The notes: generated from the letters alone by a model not told the origin. Shown: positions 35,372-50,126, numbered from the stretch's first letter. The stretch: 64,000 bases of DNA from a virus (IMGVR_UViG_3300036985_003045), one strand, 5' to 3'. Numbers and translations: made by a program.

Positions 35372-35634
35372 TGGATGTTACAGAAATAGGTAATCTCATA
35401 CAACAATATGGATTTCCAATTGTTGCGGCTGGATACATGTTAAAGATGGTAAAATATGTTTGGTCATTTACTATTGAACAGATTAATCCAGTATTAGGTG
35501 AAGCTTCAAAAGAATTGATTACTTTAATTGATAGAATACGATTATTGGATAATGATTTATTGAGACTTACTGCGAAATTGAATACCGTATTGCAGATGCG
35601 TGAAAATGCTCAGAAACAAAAGAATGAAAAATGA
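35371..35634 (+). CDS. TM plus coiled-coil protein (YvrJ/holin-like) 3
   Basis: QQYGFPIVAA, LIDRIRLLDNDL. Confidence 0.6.
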   Translation: MDVTEIGNLIQQYGFPIVAAGYMLKMVKYVWSFTIEQINPVLGEASKELITLIDRIRLLDNDLLRLTAKLNTVLQMRENAQKQKNEK

Positions 35635-36062
35635 AAACTATAATCTTATTACTGTTTATGTTCAGCAATGTCCAAGCAGAACAAAGTTTTTCGTTTAAAT
35701 CTCCAGCATTTAGTGGTATAGGATATTCTTCACATGTTCAAACAATAGAAAATACTGAAACTACTAGAAAACAAGCATTAGAGGCACAGAAATTACAAGA
35801 TGCCAAGGATGCTTCAGCATTAGCTAAGAACACTAATCTTAATAAGTTTCTGAATAACTTTGAAAGTCGTGTTTATGCTCAATTATCAACTCAATTGATT
35901 AACAACTTATTTGGTGAAAATCCAAAGAATAGTGGAACAGTTCAGATTGAAGGTAATACTATAACGTATACCAAGACAGCTGACCAAATATCAATGACTA
36001 TTACTGGTGCAGATGGTAATGTAACACAAGTAATAATACCTGTCGGTAGTTTTACATTCTAA
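35631..36062 (+). CDS. csgF: Curli assembly component CsgF-like
   Basis: Signal peptide; FSFKSPAFSG, NNFESRVYAQLS.QL...LFGE. Confidence 0.75.
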   Translation: MKTIILLLFMFSNVQAEQSFSFKSPAFSGIGYSSHVQTIENTETTRKQALEAQKLQDAKDASALAKNTNLNKFLNNFESRVYAQLSTQLINNLFGENPKNSGTVQIEGNTITYTKTADQISMTITGADGNVTQVIIPVGSFTF

Positions 36063-36850
36063 TGCGTATTATAGTATTATGCCTATTATTAACAGGATGT
36101 TCTGGTGGTATATTAACTCCCTTTAATGTATTCACTAATGAACCAGAAGTATTAGCAATAAATGAGAAACGAGAAACAATTCTACCTGCCCCTAAAGATG
36201 GTAAAGTAGTTGTTGCGGTATATTCATTTTTGGATAAGACAGGTCAAAGAAAAGATTCTGCTACTATTGCAAAATTATCATCTGCTGTAACACAAGGGGG
36301 TGAATCTATATTATTAAAATCATTGGAGGATGCTGGTGATGGTATGTGGTTTAGGGTTGTTGAACGAGTTGGTTTAGATAATTTATTAAAAGAACGACAA
36401 TTGATTCGTTCAGCGAGAGATGAAGCAAAGGATGATAAACAAATAGGTTCGATTCTTTATGCTGGTATGATACTTGAAGGTGCAATAGTATCATATGATA
36501 CCAATATCAGAACTGGTGGTATTGGATTAAGATATATGGGAATAGGACCCGATACACAATATCAGGAAGATATGGTAACTGTATCATTGAGAGCTATTAG
36601 TACACAAACTGGTGAGGTATTACTCACTATTAATGTACAGAAAACAATATTGAGTTATACAGTAGGTGTTGCTGTATTTAAGTTTTTTGATATGGGAACA
36701 CAATCATTCGAAAATGAAGTTGGTGCTACTAAGACTGAGGCAGGAATATATGCATTGAAATCGGCATTAGATTTAGCAGTTGAAGAATTAATTATTAAAG
36801 GTGAAAGAAAAAGATTATGGAAATTTTCAAAAACTTTTAGGAATAATTAA
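36062..36850 (+). CDS. csgG: Curli secretion channel CsgG (lipoprotein)
   Basis: Lipobox LTGC; VAVYSFLDKTGQRK, WFRVVERVGLDNLLKERQLIR, EGAIVSYD. Confidence 0.92.
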   Translation: MRIIVLCLLLTGCSGGILTPFNVFTNEPEVLAINEKRETILPAPKDGKVVVAVYSFLDKTGQRKDSATIAKLSSAVTQGGESILLKSLEDAGDGMWFRVVERVGLDNLLKERQLIRSARDEAKDDKQIGSILYAGMILEGAIVSYDTNIRTGGIGLRYMGIGPDTQYQEDMVTVSLRAISTQTGEVLLTINVQKTILSYTVGVAVFKFFDMGTQSFENEVGATKTEAGIYALKSALDLAVEELIIKGERKRLWKFSKTFRNN

Positions 36851-37561
36851 ATGAACATCATAAGAAATCTATTACTGTTTGTTATGCTTACAGTAATAAA
36901 TCAATCATCAATAGGAGATAGTGGTGGAAATTCTGTATACATTGACCAGACTAATGCAGATAACTCTACTGTAAATATTACACAAACAGGTGCAAATAAT
37001 ACTGTAGGGGACCCAGATTCTATTGGTTCACCATCTTTTCAAATAGAAGGCAACTCTATGTTGTTTACTATTATTCAAGATGGTATGAACAATGCTATAA
37101 CAGGTAATCTTATTGGTGGTGGAGCAACTGCTGATATTACTCAAACTGGTAATAGCAACTCTACTGATTTAAATATGGGCAATATGGGTACTGGTTCAGG
37201 TACTTTAAGTTTGGATTTAACAGGTAGTAATAATACAACTAATCTTAATATTGGATTATTGCATGATTCTGGAAACTATTCATATCTTTCAACTATTACT
37301 GGTAGTAATAACATTTTAACTAGCACTATTAATAGTAAATACACTGAGAATACTTTTATAGTAACGGGGTCTGGTAATGCAATCACAACTACTCAATCTG
37401 GTGCTAATGGCACTAATCTTATTGCTGGTAATAATATCGCCATATCCAATATTGGAAGCAATAATACCATAGGGATTAGCCAAGATGGAACAACGAATCC
37501 AAATTCGGCTATTGTCAATCTTACTGGTGATAATGCTATTGTTAATATCGAGCAACATTAA
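36851..37561 (+). CDS. Curlin-repeat protein (CsgA/CsgB-like)
   Basis: Signal peptide; repeated I.QxGxxN units; Asn/Gly/Ser/Thr-rich. Confidence 0.7.
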   Translation: MNIIRNLLLFVMLTVINQSSIGDSGGNSVYIDQTNADNSTVNITQTGANNTVGDPDSIGSPSFQIEGNSMLFTIIQDGMNNAITGNLIGGGATADITQTGNSNSTDLNMGNMGTGSGTLSLDLTGSNNTTNLNIGLLHDSGNYSYLSTITGSNNILTSTINSKYTENTFIVTGSGNAITTTQSGANGTNLIAGNNIAISNIGSNNTIGISQDGTTNPNSAIVNLTGDNAIVNIEQH

Positions 37562-38543
37562 GGCTGGTATAGGTTCAATAACAGAACATAAAGGTAATGC
37601 TTCTATTACAAGAGAGAAATCAGTATTAGAAGCAAAGAAGGATTCAAGTATTGATTCTATGGATACCATTGAAACTGGTAAAGGTGAAGTGGGTATATCT
37701 TTTGAGGATGATACTCAAGTAAAGGTAACAGAAAATAGTAAATTGGTTATAGATGATTTTGTCTATGACCCCAATAATAAAAGTGTTGGTAAATTGGCAT
37801 TGAAATGTGCTATAGGTACTGTAAGATATGCTTCAGGTAATATAGCACATGCTAATGCCAAGAATGTTGCTATCAATACACCTACAGCAACCATAGCAGT
37901 ACGGGGTACAGCATTTACCATGACTGTAGATGAAATTGGTCAGTCAATGATTATATTACTTCCAAATTTAGATGGGAGTGTTGGTGAGATTGAAGTTAGA
38001 ACTGCTATAGGTTCTGTTGTATTGAATCAAGCATTTCAAGCAACAGTAACGACTTCAAATGAAATTAAACCAACGAAACCAGTGGTGTTATTGATTAATG
38101 AATCAGCTATTACTAATATGATGATAGTAAAACCACCAAAAGAGATTACACAAAAACTAATTGAGGATAACAAATCAGGTTCAGCATTAGATTTTAATGG
38201 ATTAGATAAAGATGCATTATCAGTAAGAGTTTTTATAGACCCATTTGCAAAATTTAATGAATTAAGTGTTGATGCATTATTGATAGATTATTTAATAAAT
38301 GCTTTAGAAGATGCATTTTCAGTAGGTACATTTGCTGCTGGATATAATTCACAGAATCAAGTTTATATATTTGATAAGCAAACAAATTGGCAAGTCCAAC
38401 GAACAGTGAAACAAAGTGCTACATTATTACTTAACAAAGACCGTGGTTACAATATAACATTAGTACAAGATGGGACAACAGTGAAATTACAAAGTGCAGA
38501 TACAACCACTAATAATATTTCAATAAAACAAGGAGCAAACTAA
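37485..38543 (+). CDS. FecR-domain protein
   Basis: IGSITE.KG, D.IETG.G, F.DDT.V.VTENSKL.ID, TPTATIAVRGT; true start may be 37533. Confidence 0.85.
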   Translation: MEQRIQIRLLSILLVIMLLLISSNIKAGIGSITEHKGNASITREKSVLEAKKDSSIDSMDTIETGKGEVGISFEDDTQVKVTENSKLVIDDFVYDPNNKSVGKLALKCAIGTVRYASGNIAHANAKNVAINTPTATIAVRGTAFTMTVDEIGQSMIILLPNLDGSVGEIEVRTAIGSVVLNQAFQATVTTSNEIKPTKPVVLLINESAITNMMIVKPPKEITQKLIEDNKSGSALDFNGLDKDALSVRVFIDPFAKFNELSVDALLIDYLINALEDAFSVGTFAAGYNSQNQVYIFDKQTNWQVQRTVKQSATLLLNKDRGYNITLVQDGTTVKLQSADTTTNNISIKQGAN

Positions 38544-38821
38544 TGGCAATAGCTAAGAAAGAAGAAAAGAAAGAAGATTTTATGACATCAAAATGGCGAC
38601 CAATGATGGCAATATCATATATGGCTATTTGTTTGTTTGACTTTATGGCAGGTCCAATTCTATACAATGTTCTCCAGTATATGAATCCTGGACAACATCT
38701 AGAAATGTGGCAAGCAGTTACATTACAAGGTGGTGGGTTATATCATCTATCAATGGGTGCTATTATTGGTATTACTGCTTTTGGTAGAACTAAAGAGAAA
38801 TTAGCAGAAACTACTGAATAA
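38543..38821 (+). CDS. Holin-like protein (GTA 3TM-holin-like family)
   Basis: KWRPMM...Y..ICLFDF, LQGGGLYH.SMGAI.G..AFGRTKEK. Confidence 0.65.
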   Translation: MAIAKKEEKKEDFMTSKWRPMMAISYMAICLFDFMAGPILYNVLQYMNPGQHLEMWQAVTLQGGGLYHLSMGAIIGITAFGRTKEKLAETTE

Positions 38822-38827
38822 ATAGTT

Positions 38828-38920
38828 ATGTGGTACAGCTATCTAAGAATAAATCCTATTGTGATAATTTCAATATAGGAAAGTATGCATCGGGTCTTAG
38901 ATAGTTTGTACCGCATTTTT
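38828..38920 (+). ncRNA. Predicted long branched stem-loop ending in a U-run (structured terminator or small RNA)
   Basis: Arms 38828-38848 and 38895-38916 pair over about 20 bp with G-U wobbles on the plus strand; inner hairpin 38854-38880. Confidence 0.45.
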
Positions 38921-38993
38921 ACCTATTGAGAATATAACAAGTAACTTCAAATCCTAATCTGATATCTTTATAAGTCGGTGTTTTCCACTTCAT
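38919..38993 (-). CDS. pqqA: Coenzyme PQQ precursor peptide PqqA (not in ORF track)
   Basis: MKWKTPTYKDIRLGFEVTCYILNR, 24 aa, ExxxY core; AGGAG RBS upstream of the ATG. Confidence 0.9.
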   Translation of the reverse strand: MKWKTPTYKDIRLGFEVTCYILNR

Positions 38994-39108
38994 CTTGTTC
39001 TCCTAATTTATACATAAAGTCTAAGAATTCCTCAAATGTCAGACCTCCTGGCATTGAATAGAATGTACATTCAACAGATTCTTTCATTCTTTCTAAATCA
39101 AAATTCAT
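38968..39108 (-). CDS. Hypothetical protein, 46 aa
   Basis: MNFDLERMKESVECTFYSMPGGLTFEEF...; between the cyclase and pqqA. Confidence 0.5.
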   Translation of the reverse strand: MNFDLERMKESVECTFYSMPGGLTFEEFLDFMYKLGEQDEVENTDL

Positions 39109-39110
39109 AA

Positions 39111-41159
39111 TTACTTACTGGTGGCTACAAAAGTTCCCTTCCATTTCTTTGGAAAAGATTCATCAGACATATATCCTGTTATTCTTTTAGTCATCATATC
39201 ATAATAATAATCTAATTCACCATCAAATGAACCTTTCAATTCCATGCAATGTGTAATGGCATATGCCCATTCTTGTTTCTTATAATGCTTAAACATCTTA
39301 TTATGTAATGTTCTAGTATTGGCATATTCTAAACGATTGTATCTATCTGGTTGTAATACTGTATAAATGTCTAATCCAACAGTTTTACCTTTTACAGCAA
39401 TGTTGTCTAGCTTAATAACAAAGTATTCATCTTTAACAAGTTCAGCAGTTTCTGGACCAATGATTAATAATACCCCATAAGATTTGGTTTGGCCTTCCAA
39501 TCTTGCAGCTGTAGAAACTGAATCACCTAATACATCATATCCAAATCTAGTTTTTGAACCTATGTTACCTATAAGTGTTTGTCCAGTATTAACACCAGCA
39601 CCCATACCGACAATTGGTTTACCTTGTGCTATTAGAGTTTCATTAAATCCATTAACAGATTCAATCATTTCTAATGCGGTTTTAACAGCAACCTTGGCAT
39701 GGTTTACATCATCTAGTGGTGCATTATGTACATGAAGACTAGCATCACCAATGAACTTAATGATACATCCATCATTCTTCAATACTGGTTCTGATATGGC
39801 AGTCATATAATCATTCATAATATTGGTAAGACCTTCTACATCATCACCATAAGATTCACCAAGAGTGGTAAATCCCCTTAAATCTGTCATAACAATAGAA
39901 AGTTCTTTGCGTTCACCACCAAGTTTAATCAATTCTGGATTCTTCTGAAGCTTTTCTACCATGATAGGAGAAACATAGGAACCGAATTGTTTTTTAATTT
40001 GAAGTTTTTGTCCTAATTCAGATAGAAACTTTACGGTGTATGTGTGCCCATAGACCGCAACAATTGCGAATATAGGTATTGTAATGTCGAAAAGATAATA
40101 AAGAGTGGTATATAGATAATTAGAAATAGGATAAAGAGAGATAATGATGCTGCAAAATATAAGAATTCCATATTTCCACCTAGATAGTATTATTGATATT
40201 AATGAAAGAAAAAGTATTGTTAATAATTCTGCACCTGTAGTCCAATCAGGTCTTGATATATTTATACCTTTGGTAATAGTATCTAGAATTGATGCTTGAA
40301 TGTAATGAGGAAAGACTGCTCCATTAGAAGTCGCAACGGGGTTATTAAGTCCTTTTGCTGTGAGTCCGACAATAACGATTGCTCCGTTGAAGTCATTTGG
40401 TAAATTGACGGATGAAAATTGTCTAAATCCTGCGGGTTTAATCCAAAGTCTACCGAGGTCATCTGTTTGGATTTTACCGAACTTTGGTATTCTAACTGCT
40501 TGGATTGACCCTTCGTTGATTTTGACTTGGAATGATGGGTCTCCTGATGCCACACGCAAGGTTTCGAGACTGATACTCGGATACAATAATCCTTTGGAAC
40601 TGACCACCATTGGGATTCTTCGGGTAACGCCATCAATTTCTGGGAGTGTATTAACAACACCAATACCAGCAGCATTATCATTGAAAACTTGTATGTTGGG
40701 AAGTATGTTTTCATATTTAACTCCTACATCACCAGTACCTATAACTGATACACCTGGTCTAAATGGTTTATAAGTTTCAGTAAAAGCTTCATTAGTACCA
40801 GTTTGAGGTAATACTACTGGATATTCTTGAAGTACTTGTGTTAATGTATCATCTTTATCAAATCTATCTGCTTCAGGCATAAACAGATTAAAAACAACAA
40901 GACCAGCACCACGGATATACAGCTCCTTAATAAGATTAGCATATTCGTTCCGAGGGAATGGGAATTGACCTTTTTCTTTAAGTGTTGCATCATCTATATT
41001 TACCAATTGTATATCTGATTGTTGAATATCTTGGGTTAAAAGAGTATCAAAATATCTTAAACGAATAGATTCTACAAATGATGGGTCAACTACTCTTAAC
41101 CCAATGATTAAACCTAATGTTACTAACGATAACCATGGGGACAAGAATAGTTTTTTCAT
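39111..41159 (-). CDS. CHASE2-domain membrane class III adenylate cyclase
   Basis: VNIDD.TL...GQFPFPR (CHASE2), TM helices, TDLRGFT, IKFIGDA, YDVLGDSVSTAARLEG. Confidence 0.93.
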   Translation of the reverse strand: MKKLFLSPWLSLVTLGLIIGLRVVDPSFVESIRLRYFDTLLTQDIQQSDIQLVNIDDATLKEKGQFPFPRNEYANLIKELYIRGAGLVVFNLFMPEADRFDKDDTLTQVLQEYPVVLPQTGTNEAFTETYKPFRPGVSVIGTGDVGVKYENILPNIQVFNDNAAGIGVVNTLPEIDGVTRRIPMVVSSKGLLYPSISLETLRVASGDPSFQVKINEGSIQAVRIPKFGKIQTDDLGRLWIKPAGFRQFSSVNLPNDFNGAIVIVGLTAKGLNNPVATSNGAVFPHYIQASILDTITKGINISRPDWTTGAELLTILFLSLISIILSRWKYGILIFCSIIISLYPISNYLYTTLYYLFDITIPIFAIVAVYGHTYTVKFLSELGQKLQIKKQFGSYVSPIMVEKLQKNPELIKLGGERKELSIVMTDLRGFTTLGESYGDDVEGLTNIMNDYMTAISEPVLKNDGCIIKFIGDASLHVHNAPLDDVNHAKVAVKTALEMIESVNGFNETLIAQGKPIVGMGAGVNTGQTLIGNIGSKTRFGYDVLGDSVSTAARLEGQTKSYGVLLIIGPETAELVKDEYFVIKLDNIAVKGKTVGLDIYTVLQPDRYNRLEYANTRTLHNKMFKHYKKQEWAYAITHCMELKGSFDGELDYYYDMMTKRITGYMSDESFPKKWKGTFVATSK

Positions 41160-41167
41160 ATTATATC

Positions 41168-41944
41168 CTAGAATAAATCTGTAAAGAATTTAGAAACAGA
41201 ATCTAGAAAATCATCATCTTTCTCTACTGCTTCTGTATCAGGTATGGCAACTTCTTCTAATACAATAGGAGCAATAATTGCAGCAGCTACAGCAGGTGCT
41301 ACGACAGCAACCGGAACTGGTTTAGAAAATACATCTTCATCAATAGCACTTAATGCGATATCATAATGATGTTGTCTGTCTTTCAAACCAATAGTACCAC
41401 CATTAATTCTTTTAGTTAATGTAGTAAATTCACTAGAATCACAGAATTGATTTAGTTTATTAGTTTGCCAGAAGAATGCACCTGAACAAATAGCACCCTC
41501 TAATGTTTCACAATATGCAACAGTTTCATCTAATGATTTACCAATAGACTTTGCAAACTTTGAATAGTTATCTTTACCAGTTAATTGAATACAACCACGA
41601 CCACGGAATTTGAAACCATCTCCAGATGCTTCTGTTCCATTACCCATTCTATCAGCATAAACCTTGTTTGCAATCTTTTCTGGATTACGATTATAAGGAG
41701 CAGCCATTGCAACAGAGATAAATCTTTTTGGCCAAACTTTACAAAGACCATCAGCAGAATAATTAAGATTCTCTTTTAATGCTGTAAACTGAGCAGATTC
41801 ATGCCCACATTGAGCCAAGAAAGCAGCAACTCTTTTCTTGGTATTAATTTCATATTCAGGTAGAACTTTATTAAGAACCTCAAGTAATGCTTCGGGTTGT
41901 TTATTGTTCGGGCAAATCTTTTTCAGTTGTTCAAGTTTTAACAT
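41168..41944 (-). CDS. Glycoside hydrolase 19 endolysin
   Basis: AAFLAQCGHES, ENLNYS, YADRMGN, FRGRGCIQLTGKDNY, TKRINGG.IGL.DR. Confidence 0.92.
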   Translation of the reverse strand: MLKLEQLKKICPNNKQPEALLEVLNKVLPEYEINTKKRVAAFLAQCGHESAQFTALKENLNYSADGLCKVWPKRFISVAMAAPYNRNPEKIANKVYADRMGNGTEASGDGFKFRGRGCIQLTGKDNYSKFAKSIGKSLDETVAYCETLEGAICSGAFFWQTNKLNQFCDSSEFTTLTKRINGGTIGLKDRQHHYDIALSAIDEDVFSKPVPVAVVAPAVAAAIIAPIVLEEVAIPDTEAVEKDDDFLDSVSKFFTDLF

Positions 41945-42523
41945 TTATTTCTCCATTGTTTTCGGGTAAAATACAATAACGCCATCGTGCTTATTTATTA
42001 ATTCATAATCATGTGTATCAGATAATATATTTACAAACTTATCCCAATCAACATCAATCAAATGTTTTTCAGGGAGTTCGCCTTTAGTATATGTAGGATT
42101 TTTTGGTGAACGAAATGTTCTCATATCATCACACACAACGACATCTTTTGAATAATCTGGTTTTAATTTCTTAATTAATTCAATTTCAGGGATTAATGGT
42201 ATTCTAAATTCTTCTGCAAATTCATCTTCACCATAGATATCTGGAAAATGTGCATCTAACCAAAATAAAGTTTTATTGGTTTGATTTGGTAATAGATTAG
42301 TTAGATATGATAGGCTTTCAGAATGTTCTATATTTGCATATGGAAACTTTTGTTGACTCATTGTAACATATTCTAAACCAATATCACAAGAATATACTTC
42401 ATCATATCCAGAATCAAATGCATGACCTATACCAGCACCTTGCCAGCATCCAGTTTCTATAAAGTCTACTAAATTATATTTTTCTCGATATTTCTTTATA
42501 TCTATATGTGTAAGCCAAGTCAT
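41945..42523 (-). CDS. Class I SAM methyltransferase-like protein
   Basis: FIETGCWQG, FWLDAH, VVCDD. Confidence 0.6.
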   Translation of the reverse strand: MTWLTHIDIKKYREKYNLVDFIETGCWQGAGIGHAFDSGYDEVYSCDIGLEYVTMSQQKFPYANIEHSESLSYLTNLLPNQTNKTLFWLDAHFPDIYGEDEFAEEFRIPLIPEIELIKKLKPDYSKDVVVCDDMRTFRSPKNPTYTKGELPEKHLIDVDWDKFVNILSDTHDYELINKHDGVIVFYPKTMEK

Positions 42524-43281: not shown

Positions 43282-43451
43282 TTGTAACCCATTATAGTTT
43301 TGTAAATAAAATTGTATAATGGATAGAACCAAAATCCTGCCACCATAAACCACATATTAGATACACCATTTTGTTCCAAGGTAATACCCAAAAGACACCA
43401 TAAGGTTATACCAACAAGACAAGTTATCAACATCAATATTGTAAATCTCAT
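43278..43451 (-). CDS. 57-aa two-TM protein (paralog at 60814-60987)
   Basis: LWCLLGITLEQ.GVSN.WFMVAG.WFYP shared with the second copy. Confidence 0.7.
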   Translation of the reverse strand: MRFTILMLITCLVGITLWCLLGITLEQNGVSNMWFMVAGFWFYPLYNFIYKTIMGYK

Positions 43452-44071
43452 TATGAAACCCCTTCACTGAAATCACTCGCCATTTGTTTAGCATCTTCTA
43501 ATGTTTCTGCTGTCCATTCACCTCTACCATATTGTTCTGGATAAGGGGTAAAATTATTATGTGTGTAATCTCTGTCAGCACCTTTGAATTTAGTTTCAGA
43601 GACCAACATAAATCCAAGTTGACCATCTTGCATATAATTATCATCCAATGATACTAATGATGTTGTGCAAGTGACATCAGGTGATTCACATTCACGCCAA
43701 ATACCATCATCAATATTCCAAAACTTCAAAGATTCTTGAATATAATCTTCCTTACAAGTCGGGGAATATGCACAATCATCTCTACTTACTTTAGAACCAA
43801 CACCAAATCCATAAATTGCTCTATGACTCCAGCCATACCACTGCTTTACTGATGGGCTGAATCCAATTCCGTGTTGTAACTGCTCAGTGATTCCTCTCTT
43901 GACTAGGTGGGTAATAGTATCTTCCATACCAACTCTGGTAATATAACTATCATCGAATTTTGAGTAGTAAATTAAATCAGCATCTTCTGGTATTGTAGAT
44001 GGTCCTGTATAGGCAACCAAATCTAAGTATTCTTCATTTGTCATAATATAATTTCCTCTAATTAACTCCAA
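43451..44071 (-). CDS. Conserved phage hypothetical protein
   Basis: WYGWSHRAIYGF, TLEDAKQMA.DF. Confidence 0.7.
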   Translation of the reverse strand: MELIRGNYIMTNEEYLDLVAYTGPSTIPEDADLIYYSKFDDSYITRVGMEDTITHLVKRGITEQLQHGIGFSPSVKQWYGWSHRAIYGFGVGSKVSRDDCAYSPTCKEDYIQESLKFWNIDDGIWRECESPDVTCTTSLVSLDDNYMQDGQLGFMLVSETKFKGADRDYTHNNFTPYPEQYGRGEWTAETLEDAKQMASDFSEGVS

Positions 44072-48866: not shown

Positions 48867-50126
48867 TTATTTGTTTTGTATATTTTTATCCACACATGAT
48901 TTATATATATCAATCAACTTTTGTAGATTTTCAGCATACTCGACATCATCACCAGAATAGTTAAAATTTATTATAACAGGATTTTCATTAACGTATGCAA
49001 AAGTGTTATCAAATTTTATTTCAAAATATCCAGATGGGTCTCCCAATTCTTCCATAATATTTAAAACATTACGAATTTCTTCTATAAAAGTATTCTTGAT
49101 AAATTTGAAAATGGGTGTAATATTATCACTATTATGTTCTATATAATTAAAATTAGATATATTAGAATGTGATTGTGTGGTTTTATTTTTATAAGACCCT
49201 AATGCAATTGTATCTAAATTTATATCAGTCTTGTATTGAGGGTCCATAAAATTTGTTAAATTAATTAAATTATTTTGGAATTTTATATCTAATTCTTTTT
49301 TTATTAATCTAAAACATTTGTTATTGTTTGTATTTACACTTTCTAAAATACTCAAATCAATCTGTTGGATATCTTTATATATATTATCATTTTCAATTTT
49401 ATATTGATTATCGCTAATAAATTTGCTAGTCAATACTTCAGAAATACAAAGGGGTGTCCACTCTTTATTTTGATAAACTGTCTGTATGCTAATTTCTTCG
49501 GGATAAATGTGATTATATACAAGTTCTAAGTCATTTTTTAAAATATCAACATCACTATCTTTTCTATTCAAAAATGCTATGATATCAACAAAAACATTTA
49601 TGTTTCGTTTCTTCAACTCATTAGATAGATTTATAACACTCTCAAAATCTGCTGGTACTCTTTTTTGTGAGATAAGAGTTGTTCTATCGAATGTCTGAAG
49701 GCATATAGTTGCGTTATCAAACTTATATTTTTCTAACACATCTAACAAATCAGTATTCCAATATGCTGGATGAATTTCAAAAGTTTTAAATGCAGTTGAA
49801 TCTTTGAAATTTGGAAGAAGATTTATCACATTTTCCAAAGTTTCTGCTGACATCATTGATGGTGTTCCCCCACCAAAAAACCAATTTGATATTAAGTCTT
49901 TTTTATTTTCTAATATAGGACGATATAATTCTATAACTTTTGGTAAATATTTATCATAATAATCAGTGTATTGGTTTTTATTTTTTATTATGTTTCCAGC
50001 ATATATACAAAATTTACATATTGAAGGGCAAAATGGGCTATGGATATACACTCCTATTTTGTTTGTGCTTTTGTTAAATTTATTAACTATTAGTGAGAAG
50101 TCAATTTCATCGTATCGGTTTATCAT
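48867..50126 (-). CDS. HemN-like radical SAM enzyme
   Basis: VYIHSPFCPSICKFC (CxxxCxxC), FFGGGTPS. Confidence 0.85.
   Translation of the reverse strand: MINRYDEIDFSLIVNKFNKSTNKIGVYIHSPFCPSICKFCIYAGNIIKNKNQYTDYYDKYLPKVIELYRPILENKKDLISNWFFGGGTPSMMSAETLENVINLLPNFKDSTAFKTFEIHPAYWNTDLLDVLEKYKFDNATICLQTFDRTTLISQKRVPADFESVINLSNELKKRNINVFVDIIAFLNRKDSDVDILKNDLELVYNHIYPEEISIQTVYQNKEWTPLCISEVLTSKFISDNQYKIENDNIYKDIQQIDLSILESVNTNNNKCFRLIKKELDIKFQNNLINLTNFMDPQYKTDINLDTIALGSYKNKTTQSHSNISNFNYIEHNSDNITPIFKFIKNTFIEEIRNVLNIMEELGDPSGYFEIKFDNTFAYVNENPVIINFNYSGDDVEYAENLQKLIDIYKSCVDKNIQNK

Follow-up and report, generated by a model that had tools for sequence, protein, structure and literature searches.

Why would a phage carry, by itself, the gene for the substrate of a cofactor pathway? 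One PqqA peptide is consumed for each PQQ produced, and the enzymes of the pathway are reusable. The question is raised by an open reading frame (ORF) of 24 codons in a 64-kb stretch of viral DNA, the whole of which is called the window below. A first-pass annotation read this ORF as a phage-encoded pqqA that feeds the PqqB-E enzymes of the host and sustains methanol oxidation during infection, and supposed that such genes might be widespread and unreported.

The supposition that they are unreported does not hold. A previous study described PqqA in T4-like Lake Baikal viruses of predicted Methylophilaceae hosts (population VP_266) (Coutinho et al. 2020, Microbiome 8:163; PMC7678222). The concept of a phage-borne pqqA is thus already published, and the new details are only two: a Cys type of the peptide found in phages only, and a stable slot beside the lysis genes. 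As to possible hosts, pelagic Methylophilaceae depend on a single PQQ-dependent methanol dehydrogenase, XoxF4 (PMC6794327), and the Methylophilaceae isolates compared carry 3-12 copies of pqqA against one pqqBCDEFG (Beck et al. 2014, PMC4109929). In a strain that overproduces PQQ, stand-alone copies of pqqA ranked among the most transcribed (PMC9851590). The answer favored here is that the ORF is probably a functional pqqA, maintained by the phage, that feeds PQQ synthesis in the host.

Results

Identification of a 24-codon pqqA

The gene and its ribosome-binding site are located as follows.

38919..38993, minus strand: pqqA, 24 codons plus TAA, with its ATG at 38993-38991; product MKWKTPTYKDIRLGFEVTCYILNR
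39004-39000, minus strand: AGGAG ribosome-binding site, 6 nucleotides 5' of the pqqA ATG, inside the 3' end of a 46-aa ORF

Coordinates, AGGAG site, and translation agree exactly with those first quoted for the ORF, and its assignment to PqqA is upheld by full-profile matches to both curated models of the family. The peptide scored 39.9 bits (E 2.5e-10) against TIGR02107, over all 21 of 21 profile positions (cut-off 20), and 35.2 bits against PF08042, over positions 1-19 of 19 (cut-off 21.1). Both cut-offs were exceeded about twofold, far beyond what chance yields for small ORFs in 64 kb. The length of 24 aa and the Glu-X3-Tyr core agree with the description of the family (about 20-40 aa). In addition, the peptide retains the residues that are conserved across the PqqA sequences gathered, a W-x-x-P ... 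D-x-R-x-G leader and an E-x3-Y core. The leader residues W3, P6, D10, R12, and G14 (W-x-x-P ... D/E-x-R-x-G) are all present, and recognition of this leader by PqqD is predicted on that ground. The pair to be cross-linked is E16 and Y20 (E16-V-T-C-Y20), with Cys19 between Thr and Tyr. Judged by these features, the peptide is a genuine PqqA.

A lysis-gene neighborhood in a T4-like phage

The window derives from a T4-like myophage with a GC content of 31%. It encodes the baseplate wedge protein gp6 (phrog_219, E 3e-150), a gp5-type hub, tail proteins, a tail fiber, DNA ligase, gp32, and thymidylate synthase. The closest cultured phages by gp6 are Pelagibacter phage Mosig (40%), Methylophilales phage Melnitz (40%), and HTVC008M (38.5%), and the phage is distant kin of the pelagimyophages and of the OM43 phage Melnitz. 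Because its DNA is present in lake, freshwater, and freshwater-sediment metagenomes from at least 12 studies, it is regarded as a freshwater phage. A megablast comparison of 8 kb with GenBank phages found nothing, and IMG/VR has no exact copy of the 75-nucleotide pqqA sequence. Phage genes, a holin and an endolysin, border pqqA on the two sides, and the T4-like structural and replication genes lie elsewhere in the window. The features around pqqA are the following.

41168..41944, minus strand: GH19-type endolysin (PF00182, 28.4 bits), opening the unit that pqqA closes
39111..41159, minus strand: CHASE2 plus class III adenylate/guanylate cyclase (PF05226, 131.9 bits; PF00211, 60.5 bits), upstream of and co-directional with pqqA
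38968..39108, minus strand: 46-aa ORF (phrog_17259, E 6e-8), overlapping the first 26 nucleotides of pqqA
38829..38914, minus strand: long hairpin (-28.9 kcal/mol, z -5.8), in the 97-nucleotide gap between the pqqA stop and the holin stop
38543..38821, plus strand: 3TM holin (PF11351, 28.4 bits), convergent neighbor of pqqA and marker of the conserved slot
41992..41999, minus strand: AATAAATA, a T4-type late-promoter-like motif, 47 nucleotides 5' of the endolysin start

As first described, pqqA is the last gene of the endolysin/cyclase strand: it closes the minus-strand run formed by the GH19 endolysin, the cyclase, and the 46-aa ORF. A plus-strand run, csgF-csgG-curlin-FecR-holin, ends at 38821 and converges on it. 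None of 200 shuffled sequences was as stable as the hairpin between the two runs, and strong hairpins, each of a different sequence, also lie 3' of pqqA in three relatives (L125, L092, and L101, described below). The hairpin is probably a two-way terminator or a stabilizer of the transcript end.

The AATAAATA motif is a candidate promoter of the endolysin-cyclase-orf46-pqqA unit; its 7-mer is not over-represented in the window. ATAAATA occurs approximately 25-35 nucleotides upstream of pqqA in several relatives, and both motifs were recognized from sequence only. TATAAATT, directly 5' of the AGGAG, was considered as a late promoter of pqqA itself and rejected for being too near the start codon. 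Upstream of pqqA in L031 and L091 there is a conserved, sigma-70-like TTGACA-N17-TA(A/C)AAT; transcription from it would start within pqqA, since its -10 box runs into the start codon. A contig (X20) from a freshwater metatranscriptome library covers 38918-39034 with six differences. Because this 3.4-kb contig extends across the convergent curli-holin genes as well, it may stem from DNA carry-over.

The family of the cyclase is very large, 6835 of the 8000 candidates scored having E<=1e-10. Among its best 120 homologues, none bears a bacterial name, one is from an 'uncultured Caudovirales phage', and some are on contigs of 100-175 kb; as no bacterial name was found there, these homologues were dropped as a clue to the host. 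The 46-aa ORF is a small phage protein outside the PQQ pathway, and among the relatives it occurs only in L125 (89%) and L101 (85%). It was tried as a PqqD-like chaperone and rejected: it has no family match of that kind, gave no BLASTP alignment to PqqD, and is missing from most relatives.

Some other genes of the window deserve mention in their own right. The curli module (35631-38821, plus strand) comprises CsgF, CsgG, a curlin-repeat protein (36851-37561; PF07012, 27.3 bits), and a FecR-domain protein (37485-38543). According to the Melnitz paper, the fiber subunits are missing from phage curli modules; in contrast, the curlin-repeat protein of the window is possibly a phage-encoded curlin. 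At 43451-44071 (minus strand), there is a strong match to Tad6, an inhibitor of Type I Thoeris (PF25188, 126.8 bits, E 9e-37). At 58481-60411 (minus strand), a GT4 glycosyltransferase adjoins a calcineurin-like metallophosphoesterase, an arrangement that suggests a PlcP/Agt-like lipid-remodeling pair. The window has no tRNA genes, nor does the 103.6-kb relative L125.

pqqA stands alone

The window pqqA is a stand-alone copy and not a member of a pqqABCDE operon. A tblastn search of the 64-kb window with PqqB-E of Acinetobacter gave only noise (E above 1), which agrees with the first report of no pqqB-E in this DNA. The sole radical SAM protein (48867-50126, minus strand; PF04055) was examined as a phage PqqE and rejected: it is HemN/HemW-like and gives no PqqE signal, its best NCBIfam matches being coproporphyrinogen dehydrogenase types with scores far below the cut-offs. 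Neither PqqE nor an XoxF-type dehydrogenase was found on the 103.6-kb relative, and an XoxF-type model found no methanol dehydrogenase in the window, in that relative, or in four large IMG/VR records. Moreover, at 228 low-GC IMG/VR loci the DNA examined around pqqA, up to 14.8 kb in length, contained no PqqB-E, and no locus examined carried two copies of pqqA.

Signs of selection in related phages

The nearest relative, L125 (G001:C1; CAYWLC010000001.1), is a T4-like phage of 103,585 bp and 32% GC. It carries the same cyclase (89% identity), the small ORF, one pqqA with a single substitution (L13I), and the holin. This contig is filed in an 'uncultured Luteolibacter' MAG; it is a mis-binned phage, a binning error in a public genome.

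Altogether, pqqA was found in the same slot, within a few hundred bases of the holin or directly after the lysin/cyclase, in 12 relatives (L125, L092, L101, L079, L071, L054, L006, L017, L108, L104, L048, and L012). In seven of them (L125, L092, L101, L079, L071, L054, and L006), a holin homologue is no more than a few hundred bases from pqqA, and an endolysin 71-95% identical to that of the window has pqqA downstream in L125, L092, L079, L071, and L054. In L092, pqqA stands directly 3' of the cyclase, with no 46-aa ORF between. L079, L071, and L054 yielded no cyclase, and in these the lysin is approximately 300-400 bases 5' of pqqA. The genes next to pqqA have diverged more than pqqA itself in relatives, to 62% identity for the holin, 71-82% for the lysin, and 52% for the cyclase.

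Compared pairwise with the window, the 12 relatives show 91 synonymous against 39 replacement codon differences, in pairs that are not independent of one another. The replacements are confined to a few variable positions, and W, P, D, R, G, F, E, V, T, and Y are invariant. Most of the copies inspected in the relatives are likewise preceded, at about the same spacing, by a GGAG-type site, the rest of the upstream sequence being unrelated. The synonymous excess, the invariant residues, and the copies' own ribosome sites point to purifying selection on a translated peptide rather than to a passenger. Thus, pqqA is kept by selection in the related phages. One copy departs from the rest: near 1088 of L054, ATA stands in place of the pqqA ATG, which could reflect an error in sequencing, the use of another start codon, or a recent loss of the gene.

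Unannotated pqqA in cultured phages

With the TIGR02107 model, one pqqA was found in each of the complete genomes of three cultured phages of methylotrophs. All are stand-alone copies of 23-24 codons that score above the model's cut-off.

MZ577097.1, 76134-76205, plus strand: pqqA of Melnitz (OM43 myophage); product MKWTKPVAQEMRFGFEVTMYIMTR
KX815270, 28085-28150: pqqA of P19250A (LD28 siphophage), without an annotated feature
OP830907, 43050-43115: pqqA of MEP402 (OM43, Zobellviridae), without an annotated feature

In two related myophages of SAR11, Mosig and HTVC008M, the same model found no copy, even at E<=1. In the Melnitz record, a hypothetical protein on the opposite strand (76100-76195) is annotated across pqqA. 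In P19250A, a diguanylate cyclase gene lies approximately 300 bases upstream of pqqA, with one small gene between; this pqqA was also found by tblastn, contrary to the statement of Coutinho et al. (2020; PMC7678222) that P19250A has none of such genes. The papers on Melnitz and on MEP401/402 make no mention of pqqA. The medium published for OM43 contains 1 nM PQQ, an amount that could hide an effect of the phage gene in culture.

The expectation that the gene is short enough to be missed by gene callers was thus confirmed, Melnitz, P19250A, and MEP401/402 being mis-annotated or blank at this position and PHROGs having no family that covers pqqA. Eight of the ten viral PqqA peptides checked are missing from a collection of 15 billion proteins.

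A tblastn search of 50,697 GenBank phage records found pqqA only in Melnitz (four records), P19250A, MEP401/402, and two records named 'Acinetobacter phage MD-2021a'. One of the latter, L124 (CAKLQF020000010.1), was rejected as a phage; it is bacterial chromosome DNA that carries ppk and fur, with the complete pqqBCDE beside the match. The other, a 13-kb record (CAKLQH020000055.1), has a match of equal score.

Two types of viral PqqA

Two scans of IMG/VR were made. A degenerate motif, W-x2-P-x-[YF]-x-D-x-R-x-G-x-E-V-T-x-Y, gave at least 120 loci, to which four more contigs of the Cys type were added (124 loci analyzed). At least 108 loci of this set are of low GC (below 46%), with 64 distinct peptides, and 15 are of 50% GC or above. 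Glu and Tyr are invariant in the 64 low-GC peptides, the search motif having demanded both. Fourteen of the 15 high-GC loci encode enterobacterial-type peptides and are mostly near contig ends; these matches are probably host DNA at prophage borders and were set aside. The second scan, for the E-M-R type, gave at least 120 loci, all of 30-46% GC. The two scans together yielded at least 228 low-GC contigs with pqqA, which, with the cultured phages of methylotrophs, bears out the earlier guess that the gene is widespread. The contigs sampled encode portals, tail sheaths, and ribonucleotide reductases, and represent more than one phage architecture.

Viral PqqA comes in two types: x-[YF]-x-D-[ILVM]-R, in which the Tyr is preceded by M, C, L, or T, and x-A-x-E-M-R-F-G-F-E-V-T-M-Y. 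The window peptide (T-Y-K-D-I-R-L-G-F-E-V-T-C-Y) is of the former type, and the E-M-R type also occurs among kin of its phage lineage (L183, L210, L170, and L222). The Cys type was found in 18 IMG/VR contigs. Among 185,579 species genomes, the only match to the Cys-type motif was the L125 phage contig in the 'Luteolibacter' MAG, which argues that the Cys-type core evolved within phages.

Discussion

On the favored reading, late transcription of the endolysin-cyclase unit would probably extend into pqqA as the last gene, and translation of pqqA from its own AGGAG would give the 24-residue peptide. PqqD and PqqE of the host would bind this peptide and cross-link Glu16 to Tyr20, and host proteases, PqqB, and PqqC would then complete PQQ. 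After a T4-like shut-down of host gene expression, PqqA would be the component most likely to run out, and the phage would therefore carry the substrate gene alone. PQQ-dependent periplasmic dehydrogenases, in methylotrophs mainly the XoxF methanol dehydrogenase, would stay supplied while virions are built. Since Methylophilaceae multiply the consumed substrate gene and not the enzymes, the phage gene may be the viral form of a host habit, a counterpart of their 3-12 copies. The supply of substrate that the first-pass annotation proposed fits both the purifying selection and the restriction of pqqA, among cultured phages, to phages of PQQ-dependent methylotrophs. Two points temper this account. 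Because PQQ is held tightly and can be reused, a single infection is not obviously limited by fresh synthesis of it; and the fit of the peptide with any host PqqD/E is assumed, the Cys type being absent from all bacterial species genomes searched.

The host is somewhat more probably a methylotroph than not. Candidates are the Methylophilaceae, among whose many pqqA copies there may be other types, and PQQ producers outside that family. The D-I-R / E-V-T-C-Y type of the window, against the E-M-R / E-V-T-M-Y type of the cultured phages, suggests that the host may differ from theirs. Substrate would then be supplied in the same way to some other freshwater PQQ-producing proteobacterium, not one of the pelagic Methylophilaceae, and the PQQ would serve glucose, alcohol, or other quinoprotein dehydrogenases, or the methanol dehydrogenase of a methanotroph. 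The sequence x-Y-x-D-I-R-L-G-F-E-V-T-C-Y is unlike the E-M-R peptide of any cultured Methylophilaceae phage and unlike those of at least 120 contigs in IMG/VR. PQQ dehydrogenases occur in approximately 20% of ocean MAGs, across 14 phyla (PMC11996626), and curli-bearing viral scaffolds from Lake Baikal have been assigned to the methanotroph Methyloglobulus (PMC7678222). However, every cultured phage found with pqqA infects Methylophilaceae, both sequence types may occur among the many pqqA genes of that family, and the E-M-R type turns up in kin of the window's own lineage. A host of this other kind is a minority possibility. Membership in the freshwater LD12 'fonsimyophages', which are without curli and radical SAM genes (PMC7029224), is argued against by the presence of both in the window.

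A more doubtful proposal concerns the Cys type (D-x-R-x-G-F-E-V-T-C-Y) itself. Its occurrence in no bacterial species genome searched suggests that it may be a phage-adapted variant and not a copy of a host gene, that is, a lineage confined to phages and inherited vertically beside the lysis genes of a freshwater T4-like group. Such a variant may, for example, be processed faster by host PqqD/E or outside host regulation, or have a late role in the timing of lysis. In a wider form of this proposal, the type of viral PqqA (D-x-R versus E-M-R) may track the host lineage.

It is improbable that the peptide has been put to another use, as a decoy occupying PqqD/PqqE of the host or as a precursor modified by a phage enzyme, possibly the HemN-like protein at 48867-50126, with Cys19 as part of the new function. 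In favor of such a use, the Cys-type core is missing from the 185,579 species genomes save for the one mis-binned phage contig, the radical SAM gene is 10 kb from pqqA, and pqqA sits in a lysis region rather than amid metabolic genes. Nonetheless, the position before the Tyr is naturally variable (M, L, T, or C) and belongs to the part of the peptide that is discarded, whereas neither the cross-linked residues nor any part of the leader changes, which is what a true substrate should show. The radical SAM protein resembles HemN/HemW and gives no PqqE signal, and pqqA is found in many other architectures, including phages with a different portal family, siphoviruses, and Zobellviridae.

That the ORF is a functionless passenger, a recently acquired scrap of host DNA or a chance ORF, could be argued from its tiny size, its terminal place in a transcription unit, its variable surroundings, and the ATA of L054, but this very improbable reading is effectively refuted by the HMM score, the slot kept beside holins, lysins, and cyclases that have themselves diverged, and the mostly synonymous change, to which are added the ribosome-binding site of most copies inspected, the presence of pqqA in several unrelated phage groups, and the lack of any bacterial source sequence of the Cys type in the genome collection.

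If phage pqqA does feed PQQ synthesis, viral infection in lakes and oceans would be tied to the turnover of methanol and to that of carbon through lanthanide-dependent routes. Because standard phage annotation misses pqqA, surveys of auxiliary metabolic genes under-count it. The gene also seems usable as a host marker for hundreds of uncultured phage contigs; if its type tracks the host, pqqA could separate phages of PQQ producers from their SAR11-infecting sister phages.

Relation to known systems

The Baikal VP_266 viruses resemble the window by description, not by peptide sequence: both are freshwater, T4-like, and of low GC, with pqqA and without pqqB-E. Their pqqA was interpreted in the same way, as an auxiliary metabolic gene that raises PQQ for methanol dehydrogenase; they also carry a methanol dehydrogenase gene, which was not found in the window. 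Melnitz is of the same broad myophage group and shares the stand-alone pqqA. However, Melnitz, P19250A, and MEP401/402 encode A-x-E-M-R-F-G-F-E-V-T-M-Y peptides in other genomic slots; in Melnitz, for example, pqqA lies between tRNA genes, upstream of the baseplate hub.

The multiple copies of Methylophilaceae are likewise extra genes for the substrate, and imply that the output of PQQ is set by the consumed peptide and not by the enzymes. They are chromosomal and under host control, whereas the window copy lies in a phage lysis region and has a Cys core. Operon-borne PqqA of Klebsiella, Acinetobacter, and Pseudomonas is like the window peptide in length, leader motif, and E-x3-Y core. The form x-D-[ILV]-R-x-G-F/L-E-V-T-x-Y is common to the window peptide and the enterobacterial-type peptides at IMG/VR prophage borders, which presumably match Klebsiella PqqA. 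In the Acinetobacter contig, the operon pqqA is followed by pqqBCDE; in contrast, no pqqB follows the window pqqA.

A parallel outside PQQ synthesis is psbA (D1) of cyanophages, in which the phage carries just the fast-consumed component of a host energy system, so that this system stays active after shut-off. The likeness is an analogy only, with no relation in sequence or pathway: D1 is a subunit that is turned over, and PqqA is a substrate that is sacrificed.
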